Shown piece after piece: positions 1 to 57,628 of a stretch of 64,000 nt of DNA. The first letter of the stretch is position 1. Each line of letters starts with the position of its first letter. The stretch comes from Yuukianura sp. NJ FZ-2021 (Eukaryota): the NCBI GenBank assembly GCA_046563655.1, contig CM102286.1, forward strand, positions 15,190,001-15,254,000. Reading direction: 5' to 3'. Under the pieces are notes generated by a model. That model saw nothing but the letters and a program-made list of their open reading frames with translations. It had not been told where the DNA came from and made no database searches. Position numbers and translations under genes: made by a program.

Positions 1-476
1 GTGGGTGATTGTTCGCCACCCTCGTGCTCCATTCGGTTCTGGTCTGTACACTGTCAAATCACGCCATCCAAACTTACCCAGCACCACTTCTCCCTCAGGA
101 AACTCAGCGCATTTACTCCGAATCACACTAAAAAGTCATATTTCAACTTAAAATAAAACTCATTTTCAGAATAAATTTTGAGAAGAGTTTGTAGTTGTGA
201 GTCTTACGTAGCTACTTGTGGTCCTGGAATGACTTCATCCAGCGGAATGTCACCCAGAGCAATTCGAACAATGGGGTCAACACTGATGTAGTCAGCTCGA
301 ACCAAGATTTCTGTTGAACAAATGTAAATTTGAGAACAGTGAGGTCAGAGTTCATGACTTGACTTACCGCCGTCTTGTAGCTCTGGAAGTGTTTCCTCGA
401 CGAGTTTGAAATCGGTGAGTTGGACTGGACCCACAACGCGCTTGTCGCTCGCCAACAGAAACTTCCTGGAGGTCAT
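1..476 (-). CDS. PTGR1: Prostaglandin reductase 1-like NADP-dependent alkenal/enone reductase (MDR family), 5' part only; runs off the window edge
   Basis: Spliced exons 476-368, 310-208, 127-1 read MTSRKFLLASDKRVVGPVQLTDFKLVEETLPELQDGEILVRADYISVDP...VIPGPQVATVIRSKCAEFPEGEVVLGKFGWR, the typical PTGR1/LTB4DH N-terminus; GT-AG introns. Confidence 0.8.
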
Positions 477-1078
477 TGTGCAAATAGGAAAGTGGAAGTG
501 ACTGTGCTTCACTGGAATCCAAGTGCTCAACTAAAGAGAACAAGAGTTAAGTGCTTTCTAACGACCTTCCAAATTACTTTTCAAACCAGTTCCTAAATTT
601 CAAAATTTTATTTTTGGAAATTGATGGACTCATGGCTCCTAGCTTTGAAAAGTCCGTTATTTAAAGGAAATTGTTGTGAATAGTTTCATTGTGGAAGCGA
701 GAGGTCATCTGTTGACCTTTAGAATGAAGATTTGTCAGAATAAGTTGGAGCAGAATCTCCAAAGTTCAAGGACACAGATACAATTGTTTGAAATTCAAAC
801 ATTTCTAAATGGGGCCATTCAATTCTTACCAAAAGTTAATGTTCTTCCAGGAAACTATTTTGTTGTGAATAAATTATGTAATTGCCATTCATCTTGTAAT
901 TGAATGAGCTCCTAATGGATTTATAATGAAGATGACTTGTTAATTACAAAGTAGATCATTAGTTAACTACTTCAGTCGTTTGTCCACCATTCAATCACTT
1001 CACTTCCAAAAGACTTCAGACGAATCTAGGAAAAGTGAACAATTCGGAATTATTTTCGCAACTTTCAAAATTTTGGAA

Positions 1079-3817
1079 ATGGAGTCGTGGTTGACTGTGG
1101 GAAGAGACGATGGAGAATGTTGGTGTGCGTTGGGATTGGCGCAGTCGCTTGCTGCCTCCGGAACAACCAAAAATACAACCATCTTTACTGGTCAAAATGT
1201 GTCCAACGAAATGAGGTAAATCCGTGCCATATTTTAGTTAAGATTTAAAATTAAGTTAAATTTTTTACGTTCTTTGTGGTGTTAAGATTCCTGCTGGGTC
1301 ATTTCTTTGACCTTGTGCAGCCACTGCCAGCGGAATTCAAGCTGACCTCTGACCTGGCCACTTTCACCCCTTGGACCAAATGTGTCACGTTGGACGCCAA
1401 TTATATCGTAAACCATTTCAATTTAATTTATAAAAACGAAAATTCAAAACTTACCCGCAGTTTTTTGTTGATTAAAGGCACTGGAAAATGTAGATGAACT
1501 TTTTGAAACTTCCCGATCAAAAGATTCTCCGATCGACGCCTCACGTCAAGTTGAAGTGGTGATTTGGAGTCGAGGCGGTTCACGGACGCTTACAAAGTAA
1601 AAGCAGAAATTAAAATTTTCAATTTTTACTTTTTTTACGAAATAAAAGAAGCGTTACCTTTGTAATTCGCAGAGCAAAAACGAAGAAACTTGTTGAAATG
1701 GATTTGAATTTGCTGGGTTCTCTCTGGACTCCAGTGTTCAACGTTCTGTTTCAAATGGACACCGAAGTTCAAAAGTCACTTTTGAAGTCTTGTCCAATCC
1801 CAGCACCAAGTATTCCTCGGAGCTTTGAAAATACTGGCACAAAGGCGGATTTGTCCGAAGCAATTGCAATTGTAGGGATGAGTTGTCGTTTTCCTGGAGC
1901 AAACACGCTGGACGAATACTGGGACATTCTAAAAAACGGAAAACACACAGTGACTCGATTTCCTGTAGGAAGAGCCACTTTTGACATTCCAGGTTAAAAT
2001 CCAAACTCAAAAGTTGTTAACTAAACTCGTAAAAAACTCACGTAATTTGACGTTTGACATTGCAGGAATCGAGGAGTCAGTGGCTGGATTCCTGAGTTGC
2101 CCCATCGATGAGTTTGACCCTGCGTTCTTTGACATTGACCCAGCAGAGGCCTGGGTCATTGACCCCCAGCAACGTCTTTTGCTGGAAGTCGCTTGGGAGA
2201 GTGTGGAAGACGCAGGGATAGATGCAGCTACACTTCGTGGGACGAACGGAGGCGTGTTTGTTGGAAATTTGCTGCAGGACTACGAACGCATGATCCCACC
2301 CAACGACTTGGTGGGTCTGGATGGGACTACTCGGATGGTCGGAAACTGCTTGAGTGGTCTGAGTGGTCGGTTGTCCAGATTTCTAGGTCTTAAGGGTCCC
2401 AGTATTTCTCATGAAGCAGGCTGTTCCTCTGGACTCGGAGCGATGCACTTGGCGTCTGAATCTCTTTTAAGAAAAGAGTGTGATGTGGCTTTGTCTGGCG
2501 CTGTGAATCTCGTGATTCTGCCAAGAGCTTACAACACTGCAGTGCTGTCAGCTCATTTCAAGTGCAAGACATTTGACGAATCGGCTGATGGCTTTGTGTC
2601 TGGAGAGGCCGTGGGAGTTTTGGTTTTGAAGAGATACGCAGATGCAGTGAGGGATGGAGATCGCATTCGGGCAGTCGTCAGAGGAACGGCCATGAGCAAT
2701 GACGGGGCTTCCCTGTGCTACGGAACTCCAAATCCGGAAGGGCATGCAAGAACGCATAAACTGGCTTTGGCAAAAGCAGGAGTTCTGCCAAGAGATGTCG
2801 CCTATGTTGAGACACACGGAACTGGAACACAAAAAGGAGGCAATGTTTAAAAAAATTTCGAAAATTTGAAATTCAATTTCAAGAAAAAAAATGTTTAATT
2901 GTTTTTTGTTTTTGTTTTACTTAGACATCGGAGAGGTGTTTGGATTGGCGGAAGCTTACGGAGGAAACAGAAAGAGTCCGCTTCTGATTGGTTCCGTAAA
3001 GCCGAACATTGGTCACGGTGAAGCGGCTGCCGCTGTGGGTTCACTCGTTAAACTTGTTTTATCTCTGGAAAACGAAGCCATTCCACCAAACATCTTCTTA
3101 AACAAGGTCAATTCCAAGATTGACCTTGACTCCATTCCTGCGCAGATTCCAACACAGTTGACCCCTTGGACCGGAAATGGACGTCTGGCTGGCATCAGTT
3201 CATTTAGTCTCACTGGCTCCCTTGTCCACGCCATCCTCCAGTCAACTCCTCCAAAAAACTCCAGTTTCTTAAACAACCAATCAGACGATGAGAAACCACA
3301 GCTCATCTGCATTTCTGCCAAAACCGGAACTGCTTTGGAGCTTCAACTGGAAAACTACGTTGCCTTCTTGCGTCGAAATGGAAGTGTGAAGTTGGTGGAT
3401 GTTGCCATGGCTGCAAATGTTTGTAGAACCCATTTCTGCCATCGGATAGCAGTTTTGACCAGCAGTGTGGCTGAATTGATAGAGAAGCTGGAGAGTGGGG
3501 ACTACTTGGCAGGAATTGGGACAGAAGTGGGAGAAACTGTGGACGTAGTGGCTGAAAGTGGACAGTGGTCGAAAGTGGAAGTCTATTTGGAAAACGTAGG
3601 GAAATCGTATGTGAAAGGCGGGATTTTGAATTGGTCTGCATGGTTCGGACGGCGGGAAAAGAAAGTTTTCCTGCCTTTTTATCCATTTGAACGCCAGAAA
3701 TACTGGTTCCATCCCTCAGATTTCCCTCTGGTCATGCGCAAACGAATTGCAGAAAGTGAGTCACTTGAGCCACCAAATCTCCCACCTCCAGCCAATGTCC
3801 ACAATTTCAACAGTTGA
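1079..3817 (+). CDS. Fusion protein: degenerate glycogenin/GT8-like N-terminal domain + type I PKS ketosynthase + KS-AT linker and post-AT linker, no AT/ACP (787 aa, 6 exons)
   Basis: Exons 1079-1215, 1287-1407, 1478-1596, 1673-1992, 2066-2839, 2925-3817 join in frame (2364 nt). KS motifs AIAIVGMSCRFPGA, DPQQRLLLEVAWE, AGCSSG (Cys), ETHGTGT (His), KPNIGHGEAAA (His); post-AT motif LPFYPFERQKYW. N-terminus WLTVG..ALGLAQSL..VSNEMR..FD.V..KCVTLDANYIALENVDELF matches the glycogenin pattern. Confidence 0.85.
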
Positions 3818-4025: not shown

Positions 4026-9485
<5,460 letters not shown>

Positions 9486-10336
9486 TTCTGTTAATTTGGA
9501 AACTATCAAATTAGTCAACTTACAAAATAGTTTATGAATTTTGGTTCAAAATTACGAATCCCGATGAAAAGTGTCCATTGTGGAGAGATGAATGTGCAAC
9601 GATTGGAGATGTTTGATGGTTGGTGTTTAGTTTCCGGTTGCCCTTGACCACGTACTCCTCATCCCGCTGTGAATAAAATCCATTTCGGAAATTATTGCTC
9701 AATAATACCATCCCAAACACATTTCCTAGTAAAAAAATAAATAAAATAAACAATTAATAAACGAATTAATTGAACACTCAAATGGATTCATGTAAATAAA
9801 AATCCATCTTTTCCATAAATCCAAAAGTAACTCAAGCAGAGTATCCCACATTCAATACCTTAATCCACTTTTTTTTTAACCAAGATGCAATTCAGTGTCC
9901 CACAAATGTGGACACTGGAAAAACTGTGAGTGCATAGCAGCGTCAAACGGCATTTGCACTGGAAGGAACGACCTTGTATTAGTTTTTGGAAGAACTTGAC
10001 AAAGATAAAGACGGAAGTTGGTCAGTTTAAACAAAAGACACTAAGGACATGAATTCGTAATGAATTGTCAACTGGGATCGAAGTGTAAGAAATTCCAAGC
10101 AAACATTGCATGTCGCACGACACGATCCACCCAGGGTTAGCCAAATACCCACAAAATAAGCGATTGAAAAAAGATTCTAACTGCTACAAAAGGTTAGCGA
10201 GCGGAGGGGAGGAAGGATCCTTGTGTGTTGTGTGATCAAGTGAGCGACACTGCGGGAATTAACACTTAATTGGTCTCTACACTATTCAAAAGTGTCCACT
10301 CTCCGGAGACGGCAGTTTACCCGGGTAGAGAACACC

Positions 10337-15271: not shown

Positions 15272-18200
15272 TTAGATGAATTCAAATGTGAGTCCATGCT
15301 TCTGGAGTCGCTGTACGATGGATGTTTTGGCAAAGGCAGTTCCAGGAGTGAACACGCCACCACTTGCAAAAATTATCAACAAATCAAAACCAAAAGTTTA
15401 TCAAATTGAACCAAATTAAAGTTGATTTACCGCGTGGGAAAAGAAGATTTCTCAGCCAAAAGTGTGAGTGCAGCTTGGACAAAACAAGTCCGCGTGGCTC
15501 CATACGCTGGATTCCTTCCACTAATCTGTGTCAAAATTCAAAAAAATTAAAAGTTTTTTTTTTAAAAACGTTTTATTAAGATAATTTGTGTGCCTTTAGA
15601 ACACGTCGTGTGTTGGGTGGTGTGTCGTAGTCTTCATTTTTAGATTTGTCCAGTGGTTCATCCCAACCTTGTCCAATGAGCGTCATAGAAAACTCAAACT
15701 TCTCCATCAAAGACCGCGACGGACCTCAGGAAAAGACAACACTTTTAAAATATTTGAAGTTTCGAGAGGTCATTGCTGAATGCTGATCTCCAATAACTTT
15801 GTGTACATCATTTCACTAACCTTTCTTGGAAATTATCCCAGCAGAAAACAGGCGAGGAAACTAGAAAAATAGTTGATAAATATGAATATATATATTATAT
15901 GAATATAAATTATAATATGAAAATCCAAAATCAATTTGAGTAAAGTAAGTTACGTGATCTAGAAGGTAGACGCCGCCTGGAACACATTTCATGACGAATC
16001 CAATGAAGAGAGACCCAAGCAGAACCAGCAGTGTGATCAAAATGTTGGACTGCTTCAAATACGAAGCAAATTGGACTGGTCGCTTCTTTTCCTTCTCGTA
16101 AAAGTAATTTTGAGACCGCTCAACAGCCTAAAAAATAGGAAAAGAACATCGGTTGTTCAAAATTTAAAACAAAAAATCAGTTCCGAATTACAAGCTTTTG
16201 CGTCAGATACAAAAAAAATGAAGGAGTTATTTTTCCTCTGTATTCTCTACTATCTCTCGCAATGCATTTTGTCCTATCTCGCAATTTGTCCTATCTCTCG
16301 CAATGCATTTTGTCCTATCTCTCGCAATGCATTTTGTCCTATCTCTCGCAATGCATTTTGTCCTATCTCTCGCAATGCATTTTGTCCTATCTCTCGCAAT
16401 GCATTTTGTCCTATCTCTCGCAATGCATTTTGTCCTATCTCTCGCAATGCATTTTGTCCTATCTCTCGCAATGCATTTTGTCCTATCTCTCGCAATGCAT
16501 TTTGTCCTATCTCTCGCAATGCATTTTGTCCTATCTCTCGCAATGCATTTTGTCCTATCTCTCGCAATGCATTTTGTCCTATCTCTCGCAATGCATTTTG
16601 TCCTATCTCTCGCAATGCATTTTGTCCTATCTCTCGCAATGCATTTTGTCCTATCTCTCGCAATGCATTTTGTCCTATCTCTCGCAATGTTATAAATCTG
16701 TTGAAGTTTTATGGCTTACCCAAATGTCCGGATGTGGAAATGGAAGACACCAACCAACTTCACCAACTTCATCCTTGAAAATCATGTACTTCCTGAAATA
16801 TTTAGTTTCAAAAATATTTTCAACAAATTCCTCAACTAAAATTTGAAAACACTAACAAATCGTTACCGTTGAAGTTCGTATTTTGGTTTCGGAAGTTGGT
16901 TTGGGTAGAGTTGTTTGAGGAGTGGTCTTAAAGTATGAAACTGAGCGTAAAAGTGGAGCAGAGACGTCCAAGTGCCGTAGTTGAAGCCAGTCGTCACCAA
17001 ATGCGAACCAGAGTAAACAAAGTTTTCCACCCAATTCAATTCACCTTCAGTTTTGTTCAAAACCAAAATTAAAAAAAATAAAGATTTTTGCTATTTCCTG
17101 GATTTAGCTTACCTTGGAATTGTTTTTCCAAGTAATTGATTCCACATTCGTTCAGTATACCTGTCCATAGTCAAAAATGTTTAAAAATCAAAAAATTTAC
17201 GACTTAAAAATTATAAATTTTAAAAGTTGATCATTTGTTACTGTCGTATCCGCAGCTTCCGACGATGTACACTCCAGCCTCTCTTGCCGCTTGGTCGTAG
17301 CGAACTTGGAGCTCAGTCAAACTAAAAACACAATTGAACATTTACTAAAAAGTAACAATATTTTGAATGCTATTTTGGATAACCTGTGTGACTCTGCACT
17401 GAGGTCAACCTGGTGCGTCTTCGTTCGAATGCAGGCCTTGATGATTCGTTCGCCTGTAAAAAAAAAATGACCTTTGACCCCAACATTTCAAACAAACAAG
17501 TGATTTGCATTATTGCATACCGTATTTGGCATAAGGGCCCACAGCATTGAGCAGCACTTTGCAGTCTCTTGTCATGTAGTCCAGCGAAGACATGCGACTA
17601 ATGTCTGCTTCAATCGTCTCGATGTGCCCCAAATCAGTTCCTAACAAAAACAAAAAAAGTTGTACAAAATTTCAAAATTTTAAAATTTGGATTTTTTTAT
17701 GTGCTGTATTATATGAGGGGAGATCGACTGCTTTTCAATACGATTTGCTGCAAGATTTTTTTAAAAAACACAAGCAAAAATTCCTTGCAGAAAATAGGGA
17801 CGAACATTTTCTGCAAGCTTTTTTCTTGCACAGAACGGAGGCGTTGTTATAAAAAGATTGCGGAAAATTGAGACGTTGTTATAAGAAACATGCGGAAAAT
17901 TTGAGGAATTGGAATTTTAAAAAATTCAGCTTAAATTCAACTTTTGGATATATTTGCCTTGCCGACGATTTACGTTACGTAAATCGTAATTGACGATTAC
18001 GATTTACTCTACCGTCTTGAAATGTTGGTCTCGTGAAAAATTGACCTGTTCTCTAACTTTTTGACGTGACCAAATTTTTAAAAATTCACTTGTACACTTA
18101 CTTTTTGAGGATTTGGAATTTTGAAAAATTCAGCTGAAATTCAACTTTTGGATATATTTGGCTTGCCGAGGATTCACGCGTAACTCTACCGTCTTGAAAT

Positions 18201-20813
18201 GTTGGTCTCGCGAAAAATTGACCTGTTCTCTAACTTTTTGACGTGACCAAATTTTTAAAAATTCACTTGTACACTTACTTTTTGAGGATTTGGAATTTTG
18301 AAAAATTCAGCTGAAATTCAACTTTTGGATATATTTGCCTTGCCGAGGATTCACGCGTAACTCTACCGTCTTGAAATGTTGGTCTCGTGAAAAATTGACC
18401 TGTTCTCTAACTTTTTGACGTGACCAAATTTTTAAAAATTCACTTGTACACTTACTTTTTGAGGATTTGGAATTTTGAAAAATTCAGCTGAAATTCAACT
18501 TTTGGATATATTCGCCTTGCCGAGGATTCACGCGTAACTCTACCGTCTTGAAATGTTGGTCTCGTGAAAAATTGACTTGTTCTCTAACTTTTAGACGTGA
18601 CCAAATTTTTAAAAATTCACTTGTACACTTACTTTTTGAGGATTTGGAATTTTGAAAAATTCAGCTGAAATTCAACTTTTGGATATATTCGCCTTGCCGA
18701 GGATTCACGCGTAACTCTACCGTCTTGAAATGTTGGTCTCGTGAAAAATTGACTTGTTCTCTAACTTTTAGACGTGACCAAATTTTTAAAAATTCACTTG
18801 TACACTTACTTTTTGAGGATTTGGAATTTTGAAAAATTCAGCTGAAATTCAAATTTTGGATATATTCGCCTTGCCGAGGATTCACGCGTAACTCTACCGT
18901 CTTGAAATGTTGGTCTCGTGAAAAATTGACTTGTTCTCTAACTTTTTGACGTGACCAAATTTTTAAAAATTCACTTGTACACTTACGTTTTGAGGATTTG
19001 GAATTTTGAAAAATTCAGCTGAAATTCAACTTTTGGATATATTTGGCTTGCCGAGGATTCACGCGTAACTCTACCGTCTTGAAATGTTGGTCTCGCGAAA
19101 AATTGACCTGTTCTCTAACTTTTTGACGTGACCAAATTTTTAAAAATTCACTTGTACACTTACTTTTTGAGGATTTGGAATTTTGAAAAATTCAGCTGAA
19201 ATTCAACTTTTGGATATATTTGCCTTGCCGAGGATTCACGCGTAACTCTACCGTCTTGAAATGTTGGTCTCGTGAAAAATTGACCTGTTCTCTAACTTTT
19301 TGACGTGACCAAATTTTTAAAAATTCACTTGTACACTTACTTTTTGAGGATTTGGAATTTTGAAAAATTCAGCTGAAATTCAACTTTTGGATATATTTGC
19401 CTTGCCGAGGATTCACGCGTAACTCTACCGTCTTGAAATGTTGGTCTCGTGAAAAATTGACTTGTTCTCTAACTTTTTGACGTGACCAAATTTTTAAAAA
19501 TTCACTTGTACACTTACTTTTCGAGGATTTGGAATTTTGAAAAATTCAGCTGAAATTGAACTTTTGGATATATTTGGCTTGCCGAGGATTCACGCGTACT
19601 CTACCGTCTTGAAATGTTGGTCTCGTGAAAAATTGACCTGTTCTCTAACTTTTTGACGTGACCAAATTTTTAAAAATTCACTTGTACACTTACTTTTCGA
19701 GGATTTGGAATTTTGAAAAATTCAGCTGAAATTCAACTTTTGGATATATTTGCCTTGCCGAGGATTCACGCGTAACTCTACCGTCTTGAAATGTTGGTCT
19801 CGTGAAAAATTGACCTGTTCTCTAACTTTTTGACGTGACCAAATTTTTAAAAATTCACTTGTACACTTACTTTTTGAGGATTTGGAATTTTGAAAAATTC
19901 AGCTGAAATTCAACTTTTGGATATATTTGCCTTGCCGAGGATTCACGCGTAACTCTACCGTCTTGAAATGTTGGTCTCGTGAAAAATTGACTTGTTCTCT
20001 AACTTTTTGACGTGACCAAATTTTTAAAAATTCACTTGTACACTTACTTTTTGAGGATTTGGAATTTTGAAAAATTCAGCTGAAATTGAACTTTTGGATA
20101 TATTTGACTTGCCGAGCATTCACGCGTAACTCTACCGTCTTGAAATGTTGGTCTCGTGAAAAATTGACCTGTTCTCGTCACAAAAATTTTTGACAAAATA
20201 TAACTTTTACATTTACTTTTCGAGGAATTCTAACTTGGGAAAATTCAGCTGTCGTAAAATCTTAAAAGTGAATTATAATTTATAACAACGTCTCGATTCT
20301 CCGCAAGTTTCATATAACAGCGGCTCGATTCTTCGCAAGCTTTTTATAACCTCGGCTCGATTCTCCGCAAGCTTTTTATAACCTCGGCTCGATTCTCCGC
20401 AAGCTTCTTATAACAGCGCTTCGATTCTTCGCAAGCTTTTTATAACAGCTCCTCGATTTTCCGTAAGCTTCTTATAACAACGTCTCGATTTCTGCAAGAA
20501 AAAACTTGCAGAAAATGTTCGTTTTGATTTTCTGCAAGGAAATTTAATTGTGTTTTTTAAAAAAAAGCTTGCAGCAAATGGCGTTGAAAAGCAGTCGATC
20601 TCCCCTCATAGTATTACCCGTCAGAATTGAAATTTGAGCGAGTGTTTCTTTTAATTTTTTGACAGATCGTCCTGCGACTGCCCAAGTGAAGGGCTCCGAG
20701 TGCCCAGCATTCTGCGTTCGAACGAGTTCTTCCACAATCAGTTTCCCCGTGAATCCACTCGCACCGAACAAAATCAAGTCAAACTTCCGCTCCTCTGGAA
20801 ACCTTGTGGCCAT
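15272..20813 (-). CDS. SCCPDH: Saccharopine dehydrogenase-like oxidoreductase, paralog B (intron 1 expanded by a TIR element)
   Basis: MATRFPEERKFDLILFGASGFTG, WAVAGRS; exon 1 ends at 20618 and exon 2 resumes at ~17640 (LLNAVGPYAKY); C-terminal GGVFTPGTAFAKT; exon layout parallels paralog A. Confidence 0.87.
16250..16689. repeat. 24-bp minisatellite (CTATCTCTCGCAATGCATTTTGTC)n, ~18 copies, intronic in SCCPDH-B
   Basis: Directly visible perfect tandem array; produces the periodic ORFs in the track. Confidence 0.97.
17712..20610. mobile_element. Non-autonomous TIR (foldback-type) element of ~2.9 kb with 6-bp target-site duplication
   Basis: Left end TATGAGGGGAGATCGACTGCTTTTCAA and right end TTGAAAAGCAGTCGATCTCCCCTCATA are perfect inverted repeats that extend imperfectly for >100 bp. 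There are ~30-bp subterminal repeats and flanking GTATTA at 17706-17711 and 20611-20616. No ORF inside. Confidence 0.88.
17905..20250. repeat. 177-bp tandem satellite, ~13 copies, inside the TIR element
   Basis: Marker CTCTACCGTCTTGAAATG recurs at 18007, 18184, 18361, 18538 ... 20130. Confidence 0.95.
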
Positions 20814-40963: not shown

Positions 40964-43900
40964 ATAAAATTTTAGAGTTCAATGTGATTTAATACCAGAG
41001 CCATCAGCTAAAATTTTAGAGTTCAATGTGATTTAATACCAGAGCCATCAGCTAAAATTTTAGAGTTCAATGTGATTTAATACCAGAGCCATCAGCTAAA
41101 ATTTTAGAGTTCAATGTGATTTAATACCAGAGCCATCAGCTAAAATTTTAGAGTTCAATGTGATTTAATACCAGAGCCATCAGCTAAAATTTTAGAGTTC
41201 AATGTGATTTAATACCAGAGCCATCAGCTAAAATTTCTCACGAAGGCAAATTAGAACCCTGCCAAGCTAAAATTTTAGAGTTCAATGTGATTTAATACCA
41301 GAGCCATCAGCTAAAATTTTAGAGTTCAATGTGATTTAATACCAGAGCCATCAGCTAAAATTTTAGAGTTCAATGTGATTTAATACCAGAGCCATCAGCT
41401 AAAATTTTAGAGTTCAATGTGATTTAATACCAGAGCCATCAGCTAAAATTTTAGAGTTCAATGTGATTTAATACCAGAGCCATCAGCTAAAATTTTAGAG
41501 TTCAATGTGATTTAATACCAGAGCCATCAGCTAAAATTTTAGAGTTCAATGTGATTTAATACCAGAGCCATCAGCTAAAATTTTAGAGTTCAATGTGATT
41601 TAATACCAGAGCCATCAGCTAAAATTTTAGAGTTCAATGTGATTTAATACCAGAGCCATCAGCTAAAATTTTAGAGTTCAATGTGATTTAATACCAGAGC
41701 CATCAGCTAAAATTTTAGAGTTCAATGTGATTTAATACCAGAGCCATCAGCTAAAATTTTAGAGTTCAATGTGATTTAATACCAGAGCCATCAGCTAAAA
41801 TTTTAGAGTTCAATGTGATTTAATACCAGAGCCATCAGCTAAAATTTTAGAGTTCAATGTGATTTAATACCAGAGCCATCAGCTAAAATTTTAGAGTTCA
41901 ATGTGATTTAATACCAGAGCCATCAGCTAAAATTTCTCACGAAGGCAAATTAGAACCCTGCCAAGCTAAAATTTTAGAGTTCAATGTGATTTAATACCAG
42001 AGCCATCAGCTAAAATTTTAGAGTTCAATGTGATTTAATACCAGAGCCATCAGCTAAAATTTTAGAGTTCAATGTGATTTAATACCAGAGCCATCAGCTA
42101 AAATTTTAGAGTTCAATGTGATTTAATACCAGAGCCATCAGCTAAAATTTTAGAGTTCAATGTGATTTAATACCAGAGCCATCAGCTAAAATTTTAGAGT
42201 TCAATGTGATTTAATACCAGAGCCATCAGCTAAAATTTTAGAGTTCAATGTGATTTAATACCAGAGCCATCAGCTAAAATTTTAGAGTTCAATGTGATTT
42301 AATACCAGAGCCATCAGCTAAAATTTTAGAGTTCAATGTGATTTAATACCAGAGCCATCAGCTAAAATTTTAGAGTTCAATGTGATTTAATACCAGAGCC
42401 ATCAGCTAAAATTTTAGAGTTCAATGTGATTTAATACCAGAGCCATCAGCTAAAATTTTAGAGTTCAATGTGATTTAATACCAGAGCCATCAGCTAAAAT
42501 TTTAGAGTTCAATGTGATTTAATACCAGAGCCATCAGCTAAAATTTTAGAGTTCAATGTGATTTAATACCAGAGCCATCAGCTAAAATTTTAGAGTTCAA
42601 TGTGATTTAATACCAGAGCCATCAGCTAAAATTTTAGAGTTCAATGTGATTTAATACCAGAGCCATCAGCTAAAATTTTAGAGTTCAATGTGATTTAATA
42701 CCAGAGCCATCAGCTAAAATTTTAGAGTTCAATGTGATTTAATACCAGAGCCATCAGCTAAAATTTTAGAGTTCAATGTGATTTAATACCAGAGCCATCA
42801 GCTAAAATTTTAGAGTTCAATGTGATTTAATACCAGAGCCATCAGCTAAAATTTTAGAGTTCAATGTGATTTAATACCAGAGCCATCAGCTAAAATTTTA
42901 GAGTTCAATGTGATTTAATACCAGAGCCATCAGCTAAAATTTTAGAGTTCAATGTGATTTAATACCAGAGCCATCAGCTAAAATTTTAGAGTTCAATGTG
43001 ATTTAATACCAGAGCCATCAGCTAAAATTTTAGAGTTCAATGTGATTTAATACCAGAGCCATCAGCTAAAATTTTAGAGTTCAATGTGATTTAATACCAG
43101 AGCCATCAGCTAAAATTTTAGAGTTCAATGTGATTTAATACCAGAGCCATCAGCTAAAATTTTAGAGTTCAATGTGATTTAATACCAGAGCCATCAGCTA
43201 AAATTTTAGAGTTCAATGTGATTTAATACCAGAGCCATCAGCTAAAATTTTAGAGTTCAATGTGATTTAATACCAGAGCCATCAGCTAAAATTTTAGAGT
43301 TCAATGTGATTTAATACCAGAGCCATCAGCTAAAATTTTAGAGTTCAATGTGATTTAATACCAGAGCCATCAGCTAAAATTTTAGAGTTCAATGTGATTT
43401 AATACCAGAGCCATCAGCTAAAATTTTAGAGTTCAATGTGATTTAATACCAGAGCCATCAGCTAAAATTTTAGAGTTCAATGTGATTTAATACCAGAGCC
43501 ATCAGCTAAAATTTTAGAGTTCAATGTGATTTAATACCAGAGCCATCAGCTAAAATTTTAGAGTTCAATGTGATTTAATACCAGAGCCATCAGCTAAAAT
43601 TTTAGAGTTCAATGTGATTTAATACCAGAGCCATCAGCTAAAATTTTAGAGTTCAATGTGATTTAATACCAGAGCCATCAGCTAAAATTTTAGAGTTCAA
43701 TGTGATTTAATACCAGAGCCATCAGCTAAAATTTTAGAGTTCAATGTGATTTAATACCAGAGCCATCAGCTAAAATTTTAGAGTTCAATGTGATTTAATA
43801 CCAGAGCCATCAGCTAAAATTTTAGAGTTCAATGTGATTTAATACCAGAGCCATCAGCTAAAATTTTAGAGTTCAATGTGATTTAATACCAGAGCCATCA

Positions 43901-46900
43901 GCTAAAATTTTAGAGTTCAATGTGATTTAATACCAGAGCCATCAGCTAAAATTTTAGAGTTCAATGTGATTTAATACCAGAGCCATCAGCTAAAATTTTA
44001 GAGTTCAATGTGATTTAATACCAGAGCCATCAGCTAAAATTTTAGAGTTCAATGTGATTTAATACCAGAGCCATCAGCTAAAATTTTAGAGTTCAATGTG
44101 ATTTAATACCAGAGCCATCAGCTAAAATTTTAGAGTTCAATGTGATTTAATACCAGAGCCATCAGCTAAAATTTTAGAGTTCAATGTGATTTAATACCAG
44201 AGCCATCAGCTAAAATTTTAGAGTTCAATGTGATTTAATACCAGAGCCATCAGCTAAAATTTTAGAGTTCAATGTGATTTAATACCAGAGCCATCAGCTA
44301 AAATTTTAGAGTTCAATGTGATTTAATACCAGAGCCATCAGCTAAAATTTTAGAGTTCAATGTGATTTAATACCAGAGCCATCAGCTAAAATTTTAGAGT
44401 TCAATGTGATTTAATACCAGAGCCATCAGCTAAAATTTTAGAGTTCAATGTGATTTAATACCAGAGCCATCAGCTAAAATTTTAGAGTTCAATGTGATTT
44501 AATACCAGAGCCATCAGCTAAAATTTTAGAGTTCAATGTGATTTAATACCAGAGCCATCAGCTAAAATTTTAGAGTTCAATGTGATTTAATACCAGAGCC
44601 ATCAGCTAAAATTTTAGAGTTCAATGTGATTTAATACCAGAGCCATCAGCTAAAATTTTAGAGTTCAATGTGATTTAATACCAGAGCCATCAGCTAAAAT
44701 TTTAGAGTTCAATGTGATTTAATACCAGAGCCATCAGCTAAAATTTTAGAGTTCAATGTGATTTAATACCAGACCCATCAGCTAAAATTTTAGAGTTCAA
44801 TGTGATTTAATACCAGAGCCATCAGCTAAAATTTTAGAGTTCAATGTGATTTAATACCAGAGCCATCAGCTAAAATTTTAGAGTTCAATGTGATTTAATA
44901 CCAGAGCCATCAGCTAAAATTTTAGAGTTCAATGTGATTTAATACCAGAGCCATCAGCTAAAATTTTAGAGTTCAATGTGATTTAATACCAGAGCCATCA
45001 GCTAAAATTTTAGAGTTCAATGTGATTTAATACCAGAGCCATCAGCTAAAATTTTAGAGTTCAATGTGATTTAATACCAGAGCCATCAGCTAAAATTTTA
45101 GAGTTCAATGTGATTTAATACCAGAGCCATCAGCTAAAATTTTAGAGTTCAATGTGATTTAATACCAGAGCCATCAGCTAAAATTTTAGAGTTCAATGTG
45201 ATTTAATACCAGAGCCATCAGCTAAAATTTTAGAGTTCAATGTGATTTAATACCAGAGCCATCAGCTAAAATTTTAGAGTTCAATGTGATTTAATACCAG
45301 AGCCATCAGCTAAAATTTTAGAGTTCAATGTGATTTAATACCAGAGCCATCAGCTAAAATTTTAGAGTTCAATGTGATTTAATACCAGAGCCATCAGCTA
45401 AAATTTTAGAGTTCAATGTGATTTAATACCAGAGCCATCAGCTAAAATTTTAGAGTTCAATGTGATTTAATACCAGAGCCATCAGCTAAAATTTTAGAGT
45501 TCAATGTGATTTAATACCAGAGCCATCAGCTAAAATTTTAGAGTTCAATGTGATTTAATACCAGAGCCATCAGCTAAAATTTTAGAGTTCAATGTGATTT
45601 AATACCAGAGCCATCAGCTAAAATTTTAGAGTTCAATGTGATTTAATACCAGAGCCATCAGCTAAAATTTTAGAGTTCAATGTGATTTAATACCAGAGCC
45701 ATCAGCTAAAATTTTAGAGTTCAATGTGATTTAATACCAGAGCCATCAGCTAAAATTTTAGAGTTCAATGTGATTTAATACCAGAGCCATCAGCTAAAAT
45801 TTTAGAGTTCAATGTGATTTAATACCAGAGCCATCAGCTAAAATTTTAGAGTTCAATGTGATTTAATACCAGAGCCATCAGCTAAAATTTTAGAGTTCAA
45901 TGTGATTTAATACCAGAGCCATCAGCTAAAATTTTAGAGTTCAATGTGATTTAATACCAGAGCCATCAGCTAAAATTTTAGAGTTCAATGTGATTTAATA
46001 CCAGAGCCATCAGCTAAAATTTTAGAGTTCAATGTGATTTAATACCAGAGCCATCAGCTAAAATTTTAGAGTTCAATGTGATTTAATACCAGAGCCATCA
46101 GCTAAAATTTTAGAGTTCAATGTGATTTAATACCAGAGCCATCAGCTAAAATTTTAGAGTTCAATGTGATTTAATACCAGAGCCATCAGCTAAAATTTTA
46201 GAGTTCAATGTGATTTAATACCAGAGCCATCAGCTAAAATTTTAGAGTTCAATGTGATTTAATACCAGAGCCATCAGCTAAAATTTTAGAGTTCAATGTG
46301 ATTTAATACCAGAGCCATCAGCTAAAATTTTAGAGTTCAATGTGATTTAATACCAGAGCCATCAGCTAAAATTTTAGAGTTCAATGTGATTTAATACCAG
46401 AGCCATCAGCTAAAATTTTAGAGTTCAATGTGATTTAATACCAGAGCCATCAGCTAAAATTTTAGAGTTCAATGTGATTTAATACCAGAGCCATCAGCTA
46501 AAATTTTAGAGTTCAATGTGATTTAATACCAGAGCCATCAGCTAAAATTTTAGAGTTCAATGTGATTTAATACCAGAGCCATCAGCTAAAATTTTAGAGT
46601 TCAATGTGATTTAATACCAGAGCCATCAGCTAAAATTTTAGAGTTCAATGTGATTTAATACCAGAGCCATCAGCTAAAATTTTAGAGTTCAATGTGATTT
46701 AATACCAGAGCCATCAGCTAAAATTTTAGAGTTCAATGTGATTTAATACCAGAGCCATCAGCTAAAATTTTAGAGTTCAATGTGATTTAATACCAGAGCC
46801 ATCAGCTAAAATTTTAGAGTTCAATGTGATTTAATACCAGAGCCATCAGCTAAAATTTTAGAGTTCAATGTGATTTAATACCAGAGCCATCAGCTAAAAT

Positions 46901-48049
46901 TTTAGAGTTCAATGTGATTTAATACCAGAGCCATCAGCTAAAATTTTAGAGTTCAATGTGATTTAATACCAGAGCCATCAGCTAAAATTTTAGAGTTCAA
47001 TGTGATTTAATACCAGAGCCATCAGCTAAAATTTTAGAGTTCAATGTGATTTAATACCAGAGCCATCAGCTAAAATTTTAGAGTTCAATGTGATTTAATA
47101 CCAGAGCCATCAGCTAAAATTTTAGAGTTCAATGTGATTTAATACCAGAGCCATCAGCTAAAATTTTAGAGTTCAATGTGATTTAATACCAGAGCCATCA
47201 GCTAAAATTTTAGAGTTCAATGTGATTTAATACCAGAGCCATCAGCTAAAATTTTAGAGTTCAATGTGATTTAATACCAGAGCCATCAGCTAAAATTTTA
47301 GAGTTCAATGTGATTTAATACCAGAGCCATCAGCTAAAATTTTAGAGTTCAATGTGATTTAATACCAGAGCCATCAGCTAAAATTTTAGAGTTCAATGTG
47401 ATTTAATACCAGAGCCATCAGCTAAAATTTTAGAGTTCAATGTGATTTAATACCAGAGCCATCAGCTAAAATTTTAGAGTTCAATGTGATTTAATACCAG
47501 AGCCATCAGCTAAAATTTTAGAGTTCAATGTGATTTAATACCAGAGCCATCAGCTAAAATTTTAGAGTTCAATGTGATTTAATACCAGAGCCATCAGCTA
47601 AAATTTTAGAGTTCAATGTGATTTAATACCAGAGCCATCAGCTAAAATTTTAGAGTTCAATGTGATTTAATACCAGAGCCATCAGCTAAAATTTTAGAGT
47701 TCAATGTGATTTAATACCAGAGCCATCAGCTAAAATTTTAGAGTTCAATGTGATTTAATACCAGAGCCATCAGCTAAAATTTTAGAGTTCAATGTGATTT
47801 AATACCAGAGCCATCAGCTAAAATTTTAGAGTTCAATGTGATTTAATACCAGAGCCATCAGCTAAAATTTTAGAGTTCAATGTGATTTAATACCAGAGCC
47901 ATCAGCTAAAATTTTAGAGTTCAATGTGATTTAATACCAGAGCCATCAGCTAAAATTTTAGAGTTCAATGTGATTTAATACCAGAGCCATCAGCTAAAAT
48001 TTTAGAGTTCAATGTGATTTAATACCAGAGCCATCAGCTAAAATTTTAG
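40964..48049. repeat. 44-bp satellite (GCTAAAATTTTAGAGTTCAATGTGATTTAATACCAGAGCCATCA)n, ~160 copies, nearly invariant
   Basis: Directly visible; only two 39-bp variant units (~41227, ~41926) and one point variant (~44774) seen. Confidence 0.98.
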
Positions 48050-48179
48050 AAATGGTTTGCCATCGAGGAAAAAAGCATAAATTGCGTTTCCCATTCGTTG
48101 CCAGGGAAATTTCCCTGAAAAATGGCGAGTATAGAGTGGGCTTATAACCTTTAGGAAACTATGAAGAAAAAAATTATAA

Positions 48180-49177
48180 AATAACAAACACCAAAAAATT
48201 GGAAAAAATCCTTCGGCGACAATTAAAGAAAAAAATAAGAGGTGAGAACCCAAAACTAAGCTCACAACGATGTGGCACCGATGAGGCTCTTAACTCAACA
48301 AAGTATAATTCTTATAGAAATTGTAAACGTACAAATAAAGCAAACTTAAGCATCTAAAACAACCCATAACGGTAATATAACTTCTTCGTTCGCTTAGAGC
48401 GATGAACAGGAACCAAAGTAGTTAATGCTGACTAATCTCATCGCTTCGAATGGGGGCTTGGGCTCCTGGAAGTACATGGCTAACAGAGCTCATTGATTCT
48501 TCAAACGCTTTAACTTTGACATGCTCCGCACAGACAAATGAGCCATCGTTGTGGATACCAGCCATGACGGGAAGAGGCACAACCAAATCTTAGAAAATGG
48601 ATTGAGAAATAACAATCCTATTATGAAATTTCGATAGAAAGCAAGAATAACTGTTAATAACCCTCCAAGCGAATCTTCATCATTTCGTCATCAAATTCGT
48701 CATTACTCATTAGATTCCTTAGTAGAGAATTACGCGACAGTAATATCAGCGCTGGTGCCGAAGTCAATAGCCTACGTTATCTCATCTCTTTAGCCAAAGG
48801 CCCTTTTAAGGGCCACCTTAACACACAAATAGCAGAAAAGTACTTCGATGCATGGTTGATTGTTAAATTATTGAGTGGGCAATATCTTGGAAGGGGAGGA
48901 CAACATGTCCTGGAGTGTAGACAATATTGTGAACTGAGGACTACATATCCAGGAGTGTGGACAATATCCTTGGGAAGGGGGCGGGGGCAACATGTCGGGA
49001 AGAAGGGGTTTTCAGGGTGAATGAACTTTTAAAAGTAGACTTCACTCACCCCGAATCAGAGTTAATAGAGCCGAATCAGGGCCAAATCGTTGTGAGCTTA
49101 GTTTTGGGTTCTCACCTCTTATTTTTTTCTTTAATTGTCGCCGAAGGATTTTTTCCAATTTTTTGGTGTTTGTTATT
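48180..49177. mobile_element. ~1-kb foldback element with ~92-bp perfect (to ~120-bp imperfect) terminal inverted repeats
   Basis: 48180-48271 AATAACAAACACCAAAAAATTGG...CTCACAACGAT is the reverse complement of 49086-49177; no intact transposase inside; no clear TSD. Confidence 0.75.
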
Positions 49178-49734: not shown

Positions 49735-52700
49735 AAATTTTTGAAAATTCATAACTTGAGAACGGAACGTGATAGAAAGGTAAATTTGACGGTTCTGAAC
49801 TCGGAAAAGGATGTAGAATTTTATAAAAAATTAAAACCCCTACCCAAAATTTTGAAAAAAAAGTTAAAAAAAAATTTTTTTTTGAAAACTTTGAAAATTC
49901 ATAACTCTGGAACGGAGAGTGCTACAGGGCTCATCTTTCACGTCAGAATATTCACACATATGAAGAATTTTTAGAAATTATAAAAAGGCCGAAAACGAAC
50001 AAAAAAATTTTCGGCCAAAAAAAATCCTAAGGCGCCTTCAATTTTTTCGAAATTTGGTCAAAATTTTGGGTGGTGTTTTTAATTTTTTATAAAATTCTTC
50101 ATAATTTTGCGAGTTCAGAACCGTCGAGTTTACCTCTCTATCACTTTTCATTCCGGAGTTATGGATTTTTGAAATTTTTCAAAATTTTAAAAAAAATTCA
50201 AAATTTTTGAAAATTCATAACTTGAGAACCGAACGTGATAGAAAGGTAAATTTGACGGTTCTGAACTCGGAAAAGGATGTAGAATTTTATAAAAAATTAA
50301 AACCCCTACCCAAAATTTTGAAAAAAAAAGTTAAAAAAAAATTTTTTTTTTGAAAACTTTGAAAATTCATAACTCTGGAACGGAGAGTGCTACAGGGCTC
50401 ATCTTTCACGTCAGAATATTCACACATATGAAGAATTTTTAGAAATTATAAAAAGGCCGAAAACGAACAAAAAAATTTTCGGCCAAAAAAAATCCTAAGG
50501 CTATAGCCTTCAATTTTTTCGAAATTTGGTCAAAATTTTGGGTGGTGTTTTTAATTTTTTATAAAATTCTTCATAATTTTGCGAGTTCAGAACCGTCGAG
50601 TTTACCTCTCTATCACTTTTCATTCCGGAGTTATGGATTTTTGAAATTTTTCAAAATTTTAAAAAAAATTCAAAATTTTTGAAAATTCATAACTTGAGAA
50701 CCGAACGTGATAGAAAGGTAAATTTGACGGTTCTGAACTCGGAAAAGGATGTAGAATTTTATAAAAAATTAAAAATCCTACCCAAAATTTTGAAAAAAAA
50801 AAAAGTTCAAAAATTATTTTTTTGAAATCTTTGAAAATTCATAACTCTGGAACGTAGAGTGCTACAGGGCTCATCTTTCACGTCAGAATATTCACACATA
50901 TGAAGAATTTTTAGAAATTATAAAAAGGCCGAAAACGAACAAAAAAATTTTCGGCCAAAAAAAATCCTAAGGCTATAGCCTTCAATTTTTTCGAAATTTG
51001 GTCAAAATTTTGGGTGGTGTTTTTAATTTTTTATAAAATTCTTCATAATTTTGCGAGTTCAGAACCGTCGAGTTTACCTCTCTATCACTTTTCATTCCGG
51101 AGTTATGGATTTTTGAAATTTTTCAAAATTTTAAAAAAAATTCAAAATTTTTGAAAATTCATAACTTGAGAACGGAACGTGATAGAAAGGTAAATTTGAC
51201 GGTTCTGAACTCGGAAAAGGATGTAGAATTTTATAAAAAATTAAAACCCCTACCCAAAATTTTGAAAAAAAAAGTTAAAAAAAATTTTTTTTTTTGAAAA
51301 CTTTGAAAATTCATAACTCTGGAACGGAGAGTGCTACAGGGCTCATCTTTCACGTCAGAACATTCACACATATGAAGAATTTTTAGAAATTATAAAAGGG
51401 CCGAAAACGAACAAAAAAATTTTCGGCCAAAAAAAATCCTAAGGCTATAGCCTTCAATTTTTTCGAAATTTGGTCAAAATTTTGGGTGGTGTTTTTAATT
51501 TTTTATAAAATTCTTCATAATTTTGCGAGTTCAGAACCGTCGAGTTTACCTCTCTATCACTTTTCATTCCGGAGTTATGAATTTTTGAAATTTTTCAAAA
51601 TTTTAAAAAAAATTCAAAATTTTTGAAAATTCATAACTTGAGAACGGAACGTGATAGAAAGGTAAATTTGACGGTTCTGAACTCGGAAAAGGATGTAGAA
51701 TTTTATAAAAAATTAAAAACCCTACCCAAAATTTTGAAAAAAAAAAGTTCAAAAAAATTTTTTTAAAAAAACTTTGAAAATTCATAACTCTGGAGCGGAG
51801 AGTGCTACAGGGCTCATCTTTCACGTCAGAACATTCACACATATGAAGAATTTTTAGAAATTATAAAAAGGCCGAAAACGAACAAAAAAATTTTCGGCCA
51901 AAAAAAAATCCCAAAGCTATAGCCTTCAATTTTTTCCAAATTTGGTCAAACTTCTGAGGGTCTTTTTAATTTTTTGTAAAATTCTTCATAATTTTGCAAG
52001 TTCAAAACAGTTGAGTTTACCTCTCTATCACTTTTCATTCCCAAGTTATGAATTTTTAAAAATTTTGAAAATTTAAAAAAAATTCAAAATTTTTGAAAAT
52101 TCATAACTTGAGAACAAAAAGTGATAGAAAGGTAAATTTGACGGTTCTGAACTCGGAAAAGGATGTAGAATTTTATAAAAAATTAAAACCCCTACCCAAA
52201 ATTTTGAAAAAAAAAGTTAAAAAAAATTTTTTTTTTGAAAACTTTGAAAATTCATAACTCTGGAACGGAGAGTGCTACAGGGCTCATCTTTCACGTCAGA
52301 ACATTCACACATATGAAGAATTTTTAGAAATTATAAAAAGGCCGAAAACGAACAAAAAAATTTTCGGCAAAAAAAAATCCTGAGGCTATAGCCTTCAATT
52401 TTTTCGAAATTTGGTCAAAATTTTGGGTGGTGTTTTTAATTTTTTATAAAATTCTTCATAATTTTGCGAGTTCAGAACCGTCGAGTTTACCTCTCTATCA
52501 CTTTTCATTCCGGAGTTATGGATTTTTGAAATTTTTCAAAATTTTAAAAAAAATTCAAAATTTTTGAAAATTCATAACTTGAGAACCGAACGTGATAGAA
52601 AGGTAAATTTGACGGTTCTGAACTCGGAAAAGGATGTAGAATTTTATAAAAAATTAAAACCCCTACCCAAAATTTTGAAAAAAAAGTTCAAAAAATTTTT

Positions 52701-53068
52701 TTTTAAAAAACTTTGAAAATTCATAACTCTGGAACGGAGAGTGCTACAGGGCTCATCTTTCACGTCAGAATATTCACACATATGAAGAATTTTTAGAAAT
52801 TATAAAAAGGCCGAAAACGAACAAAAAAATTTTCGGCCAAAAAAAATCCTAAATCAATTTTTTCGAAATTTGGTCAAAATTTTGGGTGGTGTTTTTAATT
52901 TTTTATAAAATTCTTCATAATTTTGCGAGTTCAGAACCGTCGAGTTTACCTCTCTATCACTTTTCATTCCGGAGTTATGGATTTTTGAAATTTTTCAAAA
53001 TTTTGAAAAAAATTCAAAATTTTTGAAAATTCATAACTTGAGAACCGAACGTGATAGAAAGGTAAATT
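49735..53068. repeat. ~470-bp AT-rich satellite, ~7 copies, each monomer with an internal ~115-bp inverted repeat
   Basis: Marker ATAACTTGAGAAC at 49751, 50217, 50689, 51161, 51633, 52103, 52574, 53033; GTGATAGAAAGGTAAATTTGACGGTTCTGAACTCG vs CGAGTTCAGAACCGTCGAGTTTACCTCTCTATCAC within each unit. Confidence 0.95.
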
Positions 53069-56596: not shown

Positions 56597-57628
56597 CACA
56601 TTAATTAATCAAAACTGGAACAACTAATTAATAGTTAAGGTTTAACACGCTCACTGATTAAATTAAAAAAGTGATTTGTTTTGCTTTTGACTTTTGAATT
56701 TGGGAAAAGAGTTGGCGCACTTTTGTCTCAAGTTTATGTAGAGAAGTGTCTAATAGGCAGATAATCAATCAGACAAGTGTCTAATAGGCAGATAATCAAT
56801 AAGCAGTTTCCCTTTTCAGAGGATTAGCCTGAGACAAAGTAAAATTGTGGAGAGTGGCACCTTTCACGTCCGCACTCTGGAGTTACTTCCAACTTTTCTC
56901 CACTTGACCTAAAAGGGAGCACAAATTGTGAAGACAGGCTCGTTACTTCGTCGGTCCGCACTCTGGAGTTGCTGGTTAATCTTCTCCCCTTTATATAAAA
57001 GGGAACACAATCCAAAATTGAAAGAAAGTTGAATTTAGTTGGAACCGGAGGGAAAGTGGATGAATGCTCTTCCAGCCACTTAATGCATAACATCACATAG
57101 GTCATCTTTCCCAATGGATCATTCATCGGTTCACATGAAGGTCAAATGCTGTGTTCTGAAAACCTCCAAATAAAAGTCACATTTAATAAATAGGGAAGAT
57201 TCAGTTGGTTCTTGTACAACTGACACAACAAACATCATGAAAAGTAGTTTGCTCTGCTGACACACAAAAAGCCCAGTTTTCAACTTCACCTTTACATGGT
57301 TTCCGGTCCACCCCAAATCAATGCCCATCAAACCGGTCTTCACATTGCTCACTTTTCGGCTGCCCAGTTTGAGGCATTCCCAACAATTGAAACCTCAGTT
57401 CCGTTCTGAAATTCGACATTGCCATCCAAGCTCTGTCGAGCATCAGCATCTTTCTCTTCACCAAAATTCAATTTCAATAGCTGGAGACAAGCGTTTGAGT
57501 GGAGTTAGCTTCATGCTTCTTTGAATTTCTGCAAAGAGGCATGTAAAACGTCTAAGAATCAAAGTGGAACTACATTTTTAAAAGTTTGAAGTGTAGCTAA
57601 CCTAAAACTTTGGTGTTTTGGAAAGAGG

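Follow-up and report, generated by a model that had tools for sequence, protein, structure and literature searches.

The DNA analyzed in this study, hereafter called the window, is a stretch of 64,000 nucleotides from the genome of Yuukianura sp. NJ FZ-2021 (GenBank assembly GCA_046563655.1, contig CM102286.1, positions 15,190,001 to 15,254,000 of the forward strand). Positions 1079 to 3817 of its plus strand harbor a predicted gene of six exons. The first three exons, in the following called the leader, are related to animal glycogenin, a member of glycosyltransferase family 8 (GT8), and the last three encode the ketosynthase (KS) and linker of a bacterial-type polyketide synthase (PKS). Upon in-silico splicing by coordinates, the six exons formed a single open frame with zero internal stops and a product of 787 amino acids (aa). 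The start codon at position 1079 is the first in-frame ATG downstream of a stop codon at 941-943.

Exon 1 (1079-1215; aa 1-45 plus 2 nt) begins with this start codon and matches glycogenin residues 4-47, corresponding to strand 1, helix 1 and strand 2 of the N-terminal half of the GT-A fold. It is separated by intron 1 (1216-1286; 71 nt, GT-AG, 25% GC) from exon 2 (1287-1407; aa 46-86), which covers the helix-2 region of glycogenin, lacks approximately 18 aa internally and carries the former DxD strand. Intron 2 (1408-1477; 70 nt, GT-AG, 24% GC) interrupts the conserved motif made up of the DxD strand and NxDxLF. The first 13 aa of exon 3 (1478-1596; aa 87-125 plus 2 nt) correspond to glycogenin residues 107-119, and for the remainder of this exon no relatives were detectable. 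Intron 3 (1597-1672; 76 nt, GT-AG, 25% GC), which contains an AATAAA sequence at 1641-1646, would join the glycogenin-derived exons to the KS exon. Exon 4 (1673-1992) is composed of a bridge (1673-1751), a stretch leading from Met153 to the KS (1752-1856) and the beginning of the KS (1857-1992). Intron 4 (1993-2065; 73 nt, GT-AG) already lies within the bacterial-type KS, whose core is encoded by exon 5 (2066-2839) including Cys352 (nt 2422-2424) and His483 (nt 2815-2817). Intron 5 (2840-2924; 85 nt, 18% GC) has GC-AG borders; no other in-frame option preserved the HGTGT..GD motif and left the match to the Pfam family Ketoacyl-synt_C continuous. Exon 6 (2925-3817) completes the KS, including His521 (nt 3014-3016), and continues with the linker domain that connects KS and acyltransferase (AT) and the post-AT linker motif, no AT being located in between. 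It ends with a short tail and the stop codon (3815-3817). The initial annotation of the window had spliced three short exons in frame onto the KS exon. Its coordinates, GT-AG borders and phases as well as the peptide it quoted were reproduced, with the join of exon 3 to exon 4 still being a predicted one.

The GC content amounted to 43-51% in exons 1-4, to 24-25% in introns 1-3 and to 33% in the upstream flank (600-1078). Protein-guided intron calling in the neighboring ABCC4-like gene gave clean solutions in four out of nine gaps, and these introns measured 71, 71, 85 and 85 nt at 20-25% GC. Because they match the introns of the chimeric gene in size and GC content, the latter appear to be typical of this genome. 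By codon-position base composition, the proposed frame of the leader was preferred by 17.8 and 9.9 bits over the two remaining frames. Scoring of codon usage gave positive values for the exons and negative values for the introns and discriminated the frames weakly. The backgrounds available for this score were poor, one holding the 44-bp satellite and the 177-bp tandem array of the window and the other only 270 nt, and therefore support for the frame was taken from the GC contrast and the periodicity.

Comparators for the leader were gathered by scanning public contigs with a degenerate DNA pattern that represents two motifs from the C-terminal half of glycogenin. Since the leader does not possess this C-terminal half, the choice of comparators was independent of it. 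The scan yielded six viral loci and at least 119 metagenome loci; a stricter pattern gave zero viral matches. All 14 comparator open reading frames (ORFs) given to Pfam contained PF01501 (E 4.5e-26 to 4.8e-18). With a local hidden Markov model (HMM) of 33 GT8 ORFs, the spliced leader scored 37.1 bits (E 1.1e-13, Z=1) in two colinear stretches. In the comparison with shuffled sequences, the real leader attained 38.1 bits with the 33-sequence profile, whereas the best of 2000 leader shuffles reached 6.8 bits. When the 1189 ORFs of 30 aa or more in the window were ranked, the ORF of exon 1 came first (18.5 bits), followed by a runner-up with 3.5 bits. No other traces of GT8 were disclosed in the window, neither by the profile in these 1189 ORFs nor by Pfam in the 219 ORFs of at least 70 aa. 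Exon 1 alone obtained 17.7 bits against the GT8 profile. Exons 2 and 3 alone scored 1.7 and 1.9 bits, respectively, and 19.5 bits when they were spliced together. As the motif is rebuilt only by splicing these two exons, the junction 1407/1478 probably is, or was, a real splice.

A comparator ORF from a metagenome locus (L057) retrieved 120 database proteins, all of which contained PF01501 and nearly all named ones of which are called glycogenin. The organisms named among them, including rotifers, molluscs, arthropods, echinoderms and fish, were without exception metazoan. Each of these 120 glycogenins matched the leader (E up to 0.00097), and an HMM of 120 metazoan glycogenins gave 50.2 bits for the spliced leader (E 1e-17 for a single test), HMM positions 30-85 being aligned with leader aa 2-57 and positions 118-143 with aa 72-97. 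By hhalign, the exons were also compared one by one with 26 glycogenins. Exon 1 was placed at residues 4-47 (probability 95%, E 2.9e-8), exon 2 with its residues 26-39 at glycogenin residues 92-105 (E 4.7e-4) and exon 3 at residues 107-119 (E 1.2e-4), so that the placements of the single exons were colinear and nearly abutting. Introns 1 and 2 of the leader thus follow glycogenin residues ~48 and ~106, respectively. The residue numbering of glycogenin was fixed through a second comparator (P0360), which matches the structures of rabbit and human glycogenin-1 (PDB 1LL2 and others) at residues 1-336 (E 9.7e-147). Judged by these profile comparisons, the likeness of the leader to glycogenin, which had been recognized by the initial annotation as a pattern of conserved residues, is real homology. 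Among the ORFs in the loci listed, the comparator glycogenin of L057 itself (metagenome, 166-1212, minus strand) came nearest to the leader. Its nearest named relatives belong to monogonont rotifers (Brachionus, 55-56% identity), and many unnamed ones on short contigs were found at 60-82%.

With HMMs of different GT8 groups, the leader scored 43.7 bits for the animal-type group versus 20.7 bits for a probably bacterial, 18.3 bits for a fungal-like and 11.6 bits for a plant-like group. Its closeness to animal-type glycogenin together with its three spliceosomal introns indicates that the leader is of host origin, as had been proposed before. The alignment with glycogenin begins at leader residue 2, which corresponds to glycogenin residue 4, and the start codon is thus at most two residues away from the glycogenin N-terminus. 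For this reason, ATG 1079 is the ancestral glycogenin start codon. A search for GT8 by profile, which had been suggested for the leader, gave a divided result. Pfam found zero families in exons 1, 2 and 3 separately at E values up to 10, whereas the similarity of the spliced leader to the glycogenin profiles was significant; bona fide glycogenins reach only 66-92 bits on the PF01501 model. A sequence search of the PDB with exons 1-3 singly retrieved no glycogenin. In this search exons 2 and 3 had no match, and matches of exon 1 to fibronectin-type repeats of gelatinases (E 0.16-0.95) were taken as chance. In the ESM Atlas, exon 1 obtained scores of 0.75-0.79, which are below the lead threshold; PF01501 was present on 21% of the members of one cluster, and this was regarded as a weak lead.

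The glycogenin part of the gene is severely decayed. Only residues ~4-60 and ~92-119 of glycogenin survive, with ~18 residues deleted between them. This leaves ~100 of the ~260 residues of the fold, all of them from about the first 45% of the catalytic domain. The DxD motif is replaced by D82-A83-N84 (nt 1393-1401), aligned to D102-A103-D104, in which D102 and D104 are invariant in the 26 glycogenins. Of the invariant or nearly invariant glycogenin positions, T11R, N12D, Y15E, K86P and D104N are substituted in the leader, and R77 and H88-W90 are deleted. Furthermore, G18 is replaced by C. Core positions that were retained are T8, L20, S25, L26, T31, L51, D56, K97, V99, D102, A103, N110, D112, L114 and F115. 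Everything from approximately residue 125 onward is gone, including N133, D160, D163, Q164, Y195, H212 and K218, which are invariant in the 26 glycogenins, and the profile match stops at HMM position 143 of 418. The lost and replaced residues are those that we take to bind UDP-glucose and Mn or to accept glucose.

With DAN in place of DxD, altered nucleotide-contact positions and no C-terminal half, the leader appears to be catalytically dead, and a working transferase activity is very unlikely. In these respects the initial annotation, which had described the DAN sequence, the lost C-terminal half and a probably non-catalytic leader, was borne out. It had further considered docking, localisation or nucleotide-sugar binding as functions of the leader. 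Binding of a nucleotide sugar is unlikely in view of the same substitutions and deletions and of the end of similarity at residue ~125, and a role in docking, localisation or sugar binding is unsupported. By eye, aa 135-150 had been conceived as a remnant of the DQGxLN...YN region of glycogenin. This idea was ruled out, as aa 99-186 scored -2.4 bits against the GT8 profile. The same segment matched nothing in the glycogenin, PKS and GT8 sets (best E values 0.89, 3.5 and 1.9, respectively).

In exon 4, the Pfam family ketoacyl-synt was matched at profile positions 2-40 (E 4.1e-10). Exon 5 continues this profile from position 61 onward (ketoacyl-synt, E 6.2e-52) and also matches Ketoacyl-synt_C; an N-terminal loop of the KS is thus shorter by approximately 20 profile positions (41-60). 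Across intron 5, Ketoacyl-synt_C continues from profile positions 2-57 to 62-116 (E 1.4e-11 and 6.5e-13). Both the N-terminal and the C-terminal KS domain (PF00109 and PF02801) exceeded the gathering score. In exon 6, Pfam identified Ketoacyl-synt_C, KAsynt_C_assoc, CurL-like_PKS_C and RhiE-like_linker. The Cys-His-His triad (C352, H483 and H521) is intact within its motifs. Out of 81 columns that are conserved to at least 90% among 111 bacterial hits, 70 were retained and 11 were changed, several of the latter beside the active-site Cys.

The relationship of the KS to bacterial enzymes was evident from comparisons with known structures and proteins. In the PDB, the KS core scored 170-202 bits with single-KS entries of bacterial modular PKS, and the scores were lower for fungal PKS (135-142 bits) and animal fatty acid synthase (FAS; 129 bits); the chain 7zma, which has two KS, sums to 333 bits. 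Exon 6 aligned contiguously with the AT-less KS of 7zma and, in the case of CurL, in two pieces that skip residues 558-892, i.e., the AT domain. The best 120 hits of a protein-collection search, which covered proteins of 451-2000 aa, were 38-53% identical to the KS protein, and the named ones were bacterial type I PKS except for one protist entry. Judged by its domains and closest matches, the downstream part of the gene is a bacterial-type AT-less ketosynthase with its linker. Neither in the gene (Pfam) nor in the 219 ORFs of at least 70 aa of the 64-kb window did we find an AT, acyl carrier protein (ACP), ketoreductase, dehydratase or thioesterase domain or any other PKS partner of the KS. 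As the gene has no AT or ACP, the KS, if active, must act in trans with a carrier protein encoded elsewhere. The initial annotation had spoken of a PKS module whose architecture is not standard for FAS or PKS. A glycogenin-like leader in frame with a ketosynthase is indeed a non-standard arrangement; the term module does not apply to a KS with an AT-less linker. The two spliceosomal introns of the bacterial-type part, one of which is GC-AG, suggest a long residence in an animal genome.

The bridge at the beginning of exon 4 (1673-1751, aa 126-152) contains an in-frame ATG at 1698 and bears no similarity to the GT8 and PKS sets. The following stretch from Met153 to the KS (1752-1856) aligns with the N-terminal docking-type helices found at the start of bacterial PKS subunits. 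It was aligned with 11 bacterial N-termini, and the BLAST hits begin at query positions 145-188, several of them at residues 1-6 of the subject. Because of this alignment, the acquired ORF probably had its own start within exon 4, 80 nt past the acceptor. The bacterial type of the KS and the location of its N-terminus (Met153) inside exon 4 had been missed by the initial annotation. A search with the 61 aa preceding the KS through 1.84 billion representatives retrieved only one translated tandem repeat of 565 aa, which was matched seven times and rejected as chance.

Taken together, we consider it reasonably likely that the gene is a chimera of horizontal gene transfer (HGT-chimera), in which a KS fragment of bacterial type, acquired horizontally, depends for its expression on 5' exons taken from a host glycogenin duplicate. 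The underlying fusion of leader and KS as such appears likely. Capture of host 5' exons is the simplest reading, because the KS is of bacterial type and has its own N-terminus at Met153 inside exon 4. It would account for the ancestral glycogenin start codon, for three exons with an intact frame, intact splice sites and dead catalytic residues, for the bridge, and for a bacterial-type ORF that starts at its former N-terminus. According to this reading, a fragment of a bacterial-type modular PKS comprising a docking-type helix, the KS and an AT-less linker would have come to lie immediately behind exons 1-3 of a glycogenin duplicate. Transcription would most likely proceed from the ~600 nt between the chimera and its divergent neighbor. 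After removal of the five introns, which measure 70-85 nt, translation would begin at the ancestral glycogenin ATG 1079. The leader (aa 2-99) would then be a decayed remnant, kept open and spliceable mainly because a stop or a splice defect would abolish expression of the KS. It would provide a promoter, a start codon and an N-terminal extension instead of sugar transfer. The exon structure, the GT8 homology with its decay and the type and architecture of the KS are shown by the present data; the splice of exon 3 to exon 4, the expression, the horizontal origin and any activity are presumed in this scheme.

Several points weigh against the reading of an expressed chimera. The join of exon 3 to exon 4 rests on the logic of the sequence, and agreement of the frame is expected in one of three cases by chance. 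A protein consisting of the KS only could be initiated at either of two in-frame ATGs, 1698 and 1752. If intron 3 is kept, a TAA codon (1598-1600) follows directly after exon 3, and the AATAAA sequence at 1641-1646 is located 26 nt before the acceptor. The GC content of exons 1-3 equals or exceeds that of the KS exons, which is unexpected for a leader relaxed for a long time and may mean a constraint of its own. The codon-usage scores of coding potential, with their poor backgrounds, discriminated weakly between the frames. As regards the KS, the number of retained columns (70 of 81) is close to the lower limit of the values found in bacterial KS (minimum 68, 5th percentile 71, median 79), and some relaxation is therefore possible. 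The horizontal origin is derived from best hits in a search limited to proteins of up to 2000 aa. Finally, no self-match or ortholog of the KS protein was found among proteins of 451-2000 aa or by the pre-KS search of the 1.84 billion representatives.

Some of these features would also be compatible with two separate expression units, i.e., a glycogenin relic or pseudogene of ~126 aa ending at the TAA at 1598 and a KS starting at ATG 1698 or 1752. The KS would then be transcribed from a cryptic promoter or, if this animal practices spliced-leader trans-splicing, be the downstream cistron of an operon that uses the AG at 1671-1672. We regard this arrangement as unlikely. It is favored by the stop directly after exon 3 upon retention of intron 3, by the AATAAA sequence ahead of the acceptor and by Met153 being the bacterial protein's own N-terminus; moreover, the organism may belong to a lineage with trans-splicing, since the best ABCC4 matches are only 57% identical. 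However, the spacer of 76 nt resembles the local introns in size, GC content and its GT...AG borders and is too short for a 3' end plus a promoter. The TAA after exon 3 is not special, because each GTAA donor of the gene leads into an early stop on read-through. In addition, a dead half of a GT-A domain has no evident reason to keep a frame of 125 codons, three good pairs of splice sites and 46-51% GC in a background of 25-33%.

A still more doubtful explanation is that the whole locus is a relic without function, in which a PKS fragment came to lie beside a defective glycogenin duplicate. Neither part would then yield a useful product, and the frame would be open by chance or because it is young. 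The lack of AT, ACP and release domain in gene and window, the missing ortholog, the 11 changes at 81 highly conserved KS positions, several of them near the active-site Cys, and the shortening of the N-terminal loop by ~20 profile positions would be in agreement with such a relic. However, the two spliceosomal introns in the bacterial part speak for a long residence, during which an unconstrained frame of 2.4 kb should have been broken. Moreover, the catalytic triad is intact, the conservation of the KS is inside the range of bacterial KS, and the composition of the exons contrasts sharply with that of the flanks.

It is quite improbable that the fusion is real and the half-glycogenin is a selected non-catalytic domain (for dimerisation, docking, localisation or ligand binding), e.g., a dimerisation or targeting leader on a stand-alone bacterial-type KS run in trans with animal carrier proteins: the residues kept are mainly those of the hydrophobic core or of structural importance, with the catalytic and ligand-contact positions lost, and GC content and codon periodicity of the leader are as strong as those of the KS exons, but retention of core residues is equally expected from simple ancestry, only ~100 of ~260 fold residues are left and a further 18 aa are deleted internally, the residues at the nucleotide-contact positions have been exchanged, and the searches disclosed no ortholog that would show constraint. 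If the leader were such a module, it would represent a PKS architecture that an animal had invented by combining its own glycosyltransferase with a condensing enzyme of foreign origin.

Returning to capture of host exons by a bacterial-type KS fragment, both parts of the gene can be set against known systems. Like metazoan glycogenin (GT8), the leader is colinear with residues ~4-60 and 92-119 in its aa 2-57 and 72-97; unlike glycogenin, its second Asp of the DxD motif is changed to Asn, N12, Y15 and K86 are replaced, and positions 125-220 are absent. The downstream part is similar to AT-less (trans-AT type) bacterial KS-linker units (PDB 7zma and 4wky) and to CurL (4mz0) in its KS domains, the triad, the KS-to-AT linker, the post-AT motif and the N-terminal helix. 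In contrast to bacterial PKS subunits, the chimera resides in an animal genome, has two spliceosomal introns and a host-derived leader, contains no ACP or other domain past the linker and has a shortened loop at profile positions 41-60.

The oskar gene is reportedly a related system that is counted alongside HGT-chimeras. As described in the abstract of Kapoor et al. (PNAS 2026, PMC13389597), 104 origins of HGT-chimeras were found in arthropods, a contiguous chimeric mRNA being obtained in 36 of 41 tested cases. According to the same abstract (PMC13389597), such chimeras combine intervals of metazoan and non-metazoan descent in one ORF, as is presumed here, and often arose from duplicated metazoan genes. 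Unlike the set described there (PMC13389597), the present chimera is known from genomic DNA alone, and its horizontal origin is suggested by best hits. None of the words polyketide, ketoacyl and glycogenin appears in the main text of this study, and 12 of its 15 supplementary tables contain neither these words nor the two Pfam accessions (PMC13389597). Passages of a second study (PMC11258130) report horizontally acquired genes for nonribosomal peptide synthetases and PKS in bdelloid rotifers and the springtail Folsomia, some of which gained introns after the transfer. These genes resemble the present one in that a bacterial-type PKS sequence is resident in an animal genome; as described in these passages, they differ from it by being large multi-domain synthetases or clusters with carrier domains (PMC11258130). 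A fusion with a host glycosyltransferase is not mentioned in the passages, in which "glycosyltransferase" occurs zero times and "fusion" once in another sense (PMC11258130). Literature searches, judged by title, revealed no report on a combination of glycogenin and ketosynthase.

If the transcript is confirmed, the gene would illustrate clearly by which route a bacterial fragment obtained through horizontal transfer can come to be expressed in an animal. The fragment would have taken over promoter, start codon and initial exons from the duplicate of a housekeeping gene, whose captured domain then decays while the frame is kept. The gene would also be an unusual ACP-less and AT-less addition to the few bacterial-type PKS sequences in animals, and its partner and product would become a biochemical question.

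The surroundings of the chimeric gene are those of an ordinary animal genome, with ABCC4-like, urea-transporter, MFS, CSTF1, ERGIC and ALG9 genes in the window. Upstream, the divergent intergenic region (477-1078) of ~600 nt separates ATG 1079 from an oxidoreductase-like gene on the minus strand and is presumed to be a shared promoter region. The start of the latter gene (1-476) was recognized by three colinear Pfam matches to ADH_N_2 below the gathering score, located at 345-476, 207-344 and 1-135 and corresponding to profile positions 6-31, 31-52 and 73-101, respectively. Downstream, the ABCC4-like ABC transporter gene (4054-9510, minus strand) is convergent with the KS gene, the two stop codons being ~240 nt apart. 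Among its best matches, those from two springtails were 57% and 51% identical, and those from fish, lancelet and spider 53-54%.

The window also harbors several repeats. A satellite with a unit of 44 bp extends over ~7 kb (40965-48050) in 161 copies of 98% identity. Tandem arrays are located at 18006-20176 (177-bp unit, 12.3 copies, 98% matches) and at 49735-53068 (472-bp unit, 7.1 copies, 95% matches). A further repeat at 16281-16689 consists of 17 copies of a 24-bp unit (99% identity), whose translations yield spurious Pfam hits such as Gp5_trimer_C. On the plus strand, a stem-loop of histone 3' untranslated regions was identified at 48794-48841 (Rfam RF00032, 35.4 bits, gathering score 34); no histone domain was present in ORFs of 70 aa or more close by. 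An uninterrupted ORF of 796 aa without a Pfam family at E up to 0.01 is present at 57590-59977 of the plus strand, and its length is unusual in this window, whose genes are otherwise split into short exons.

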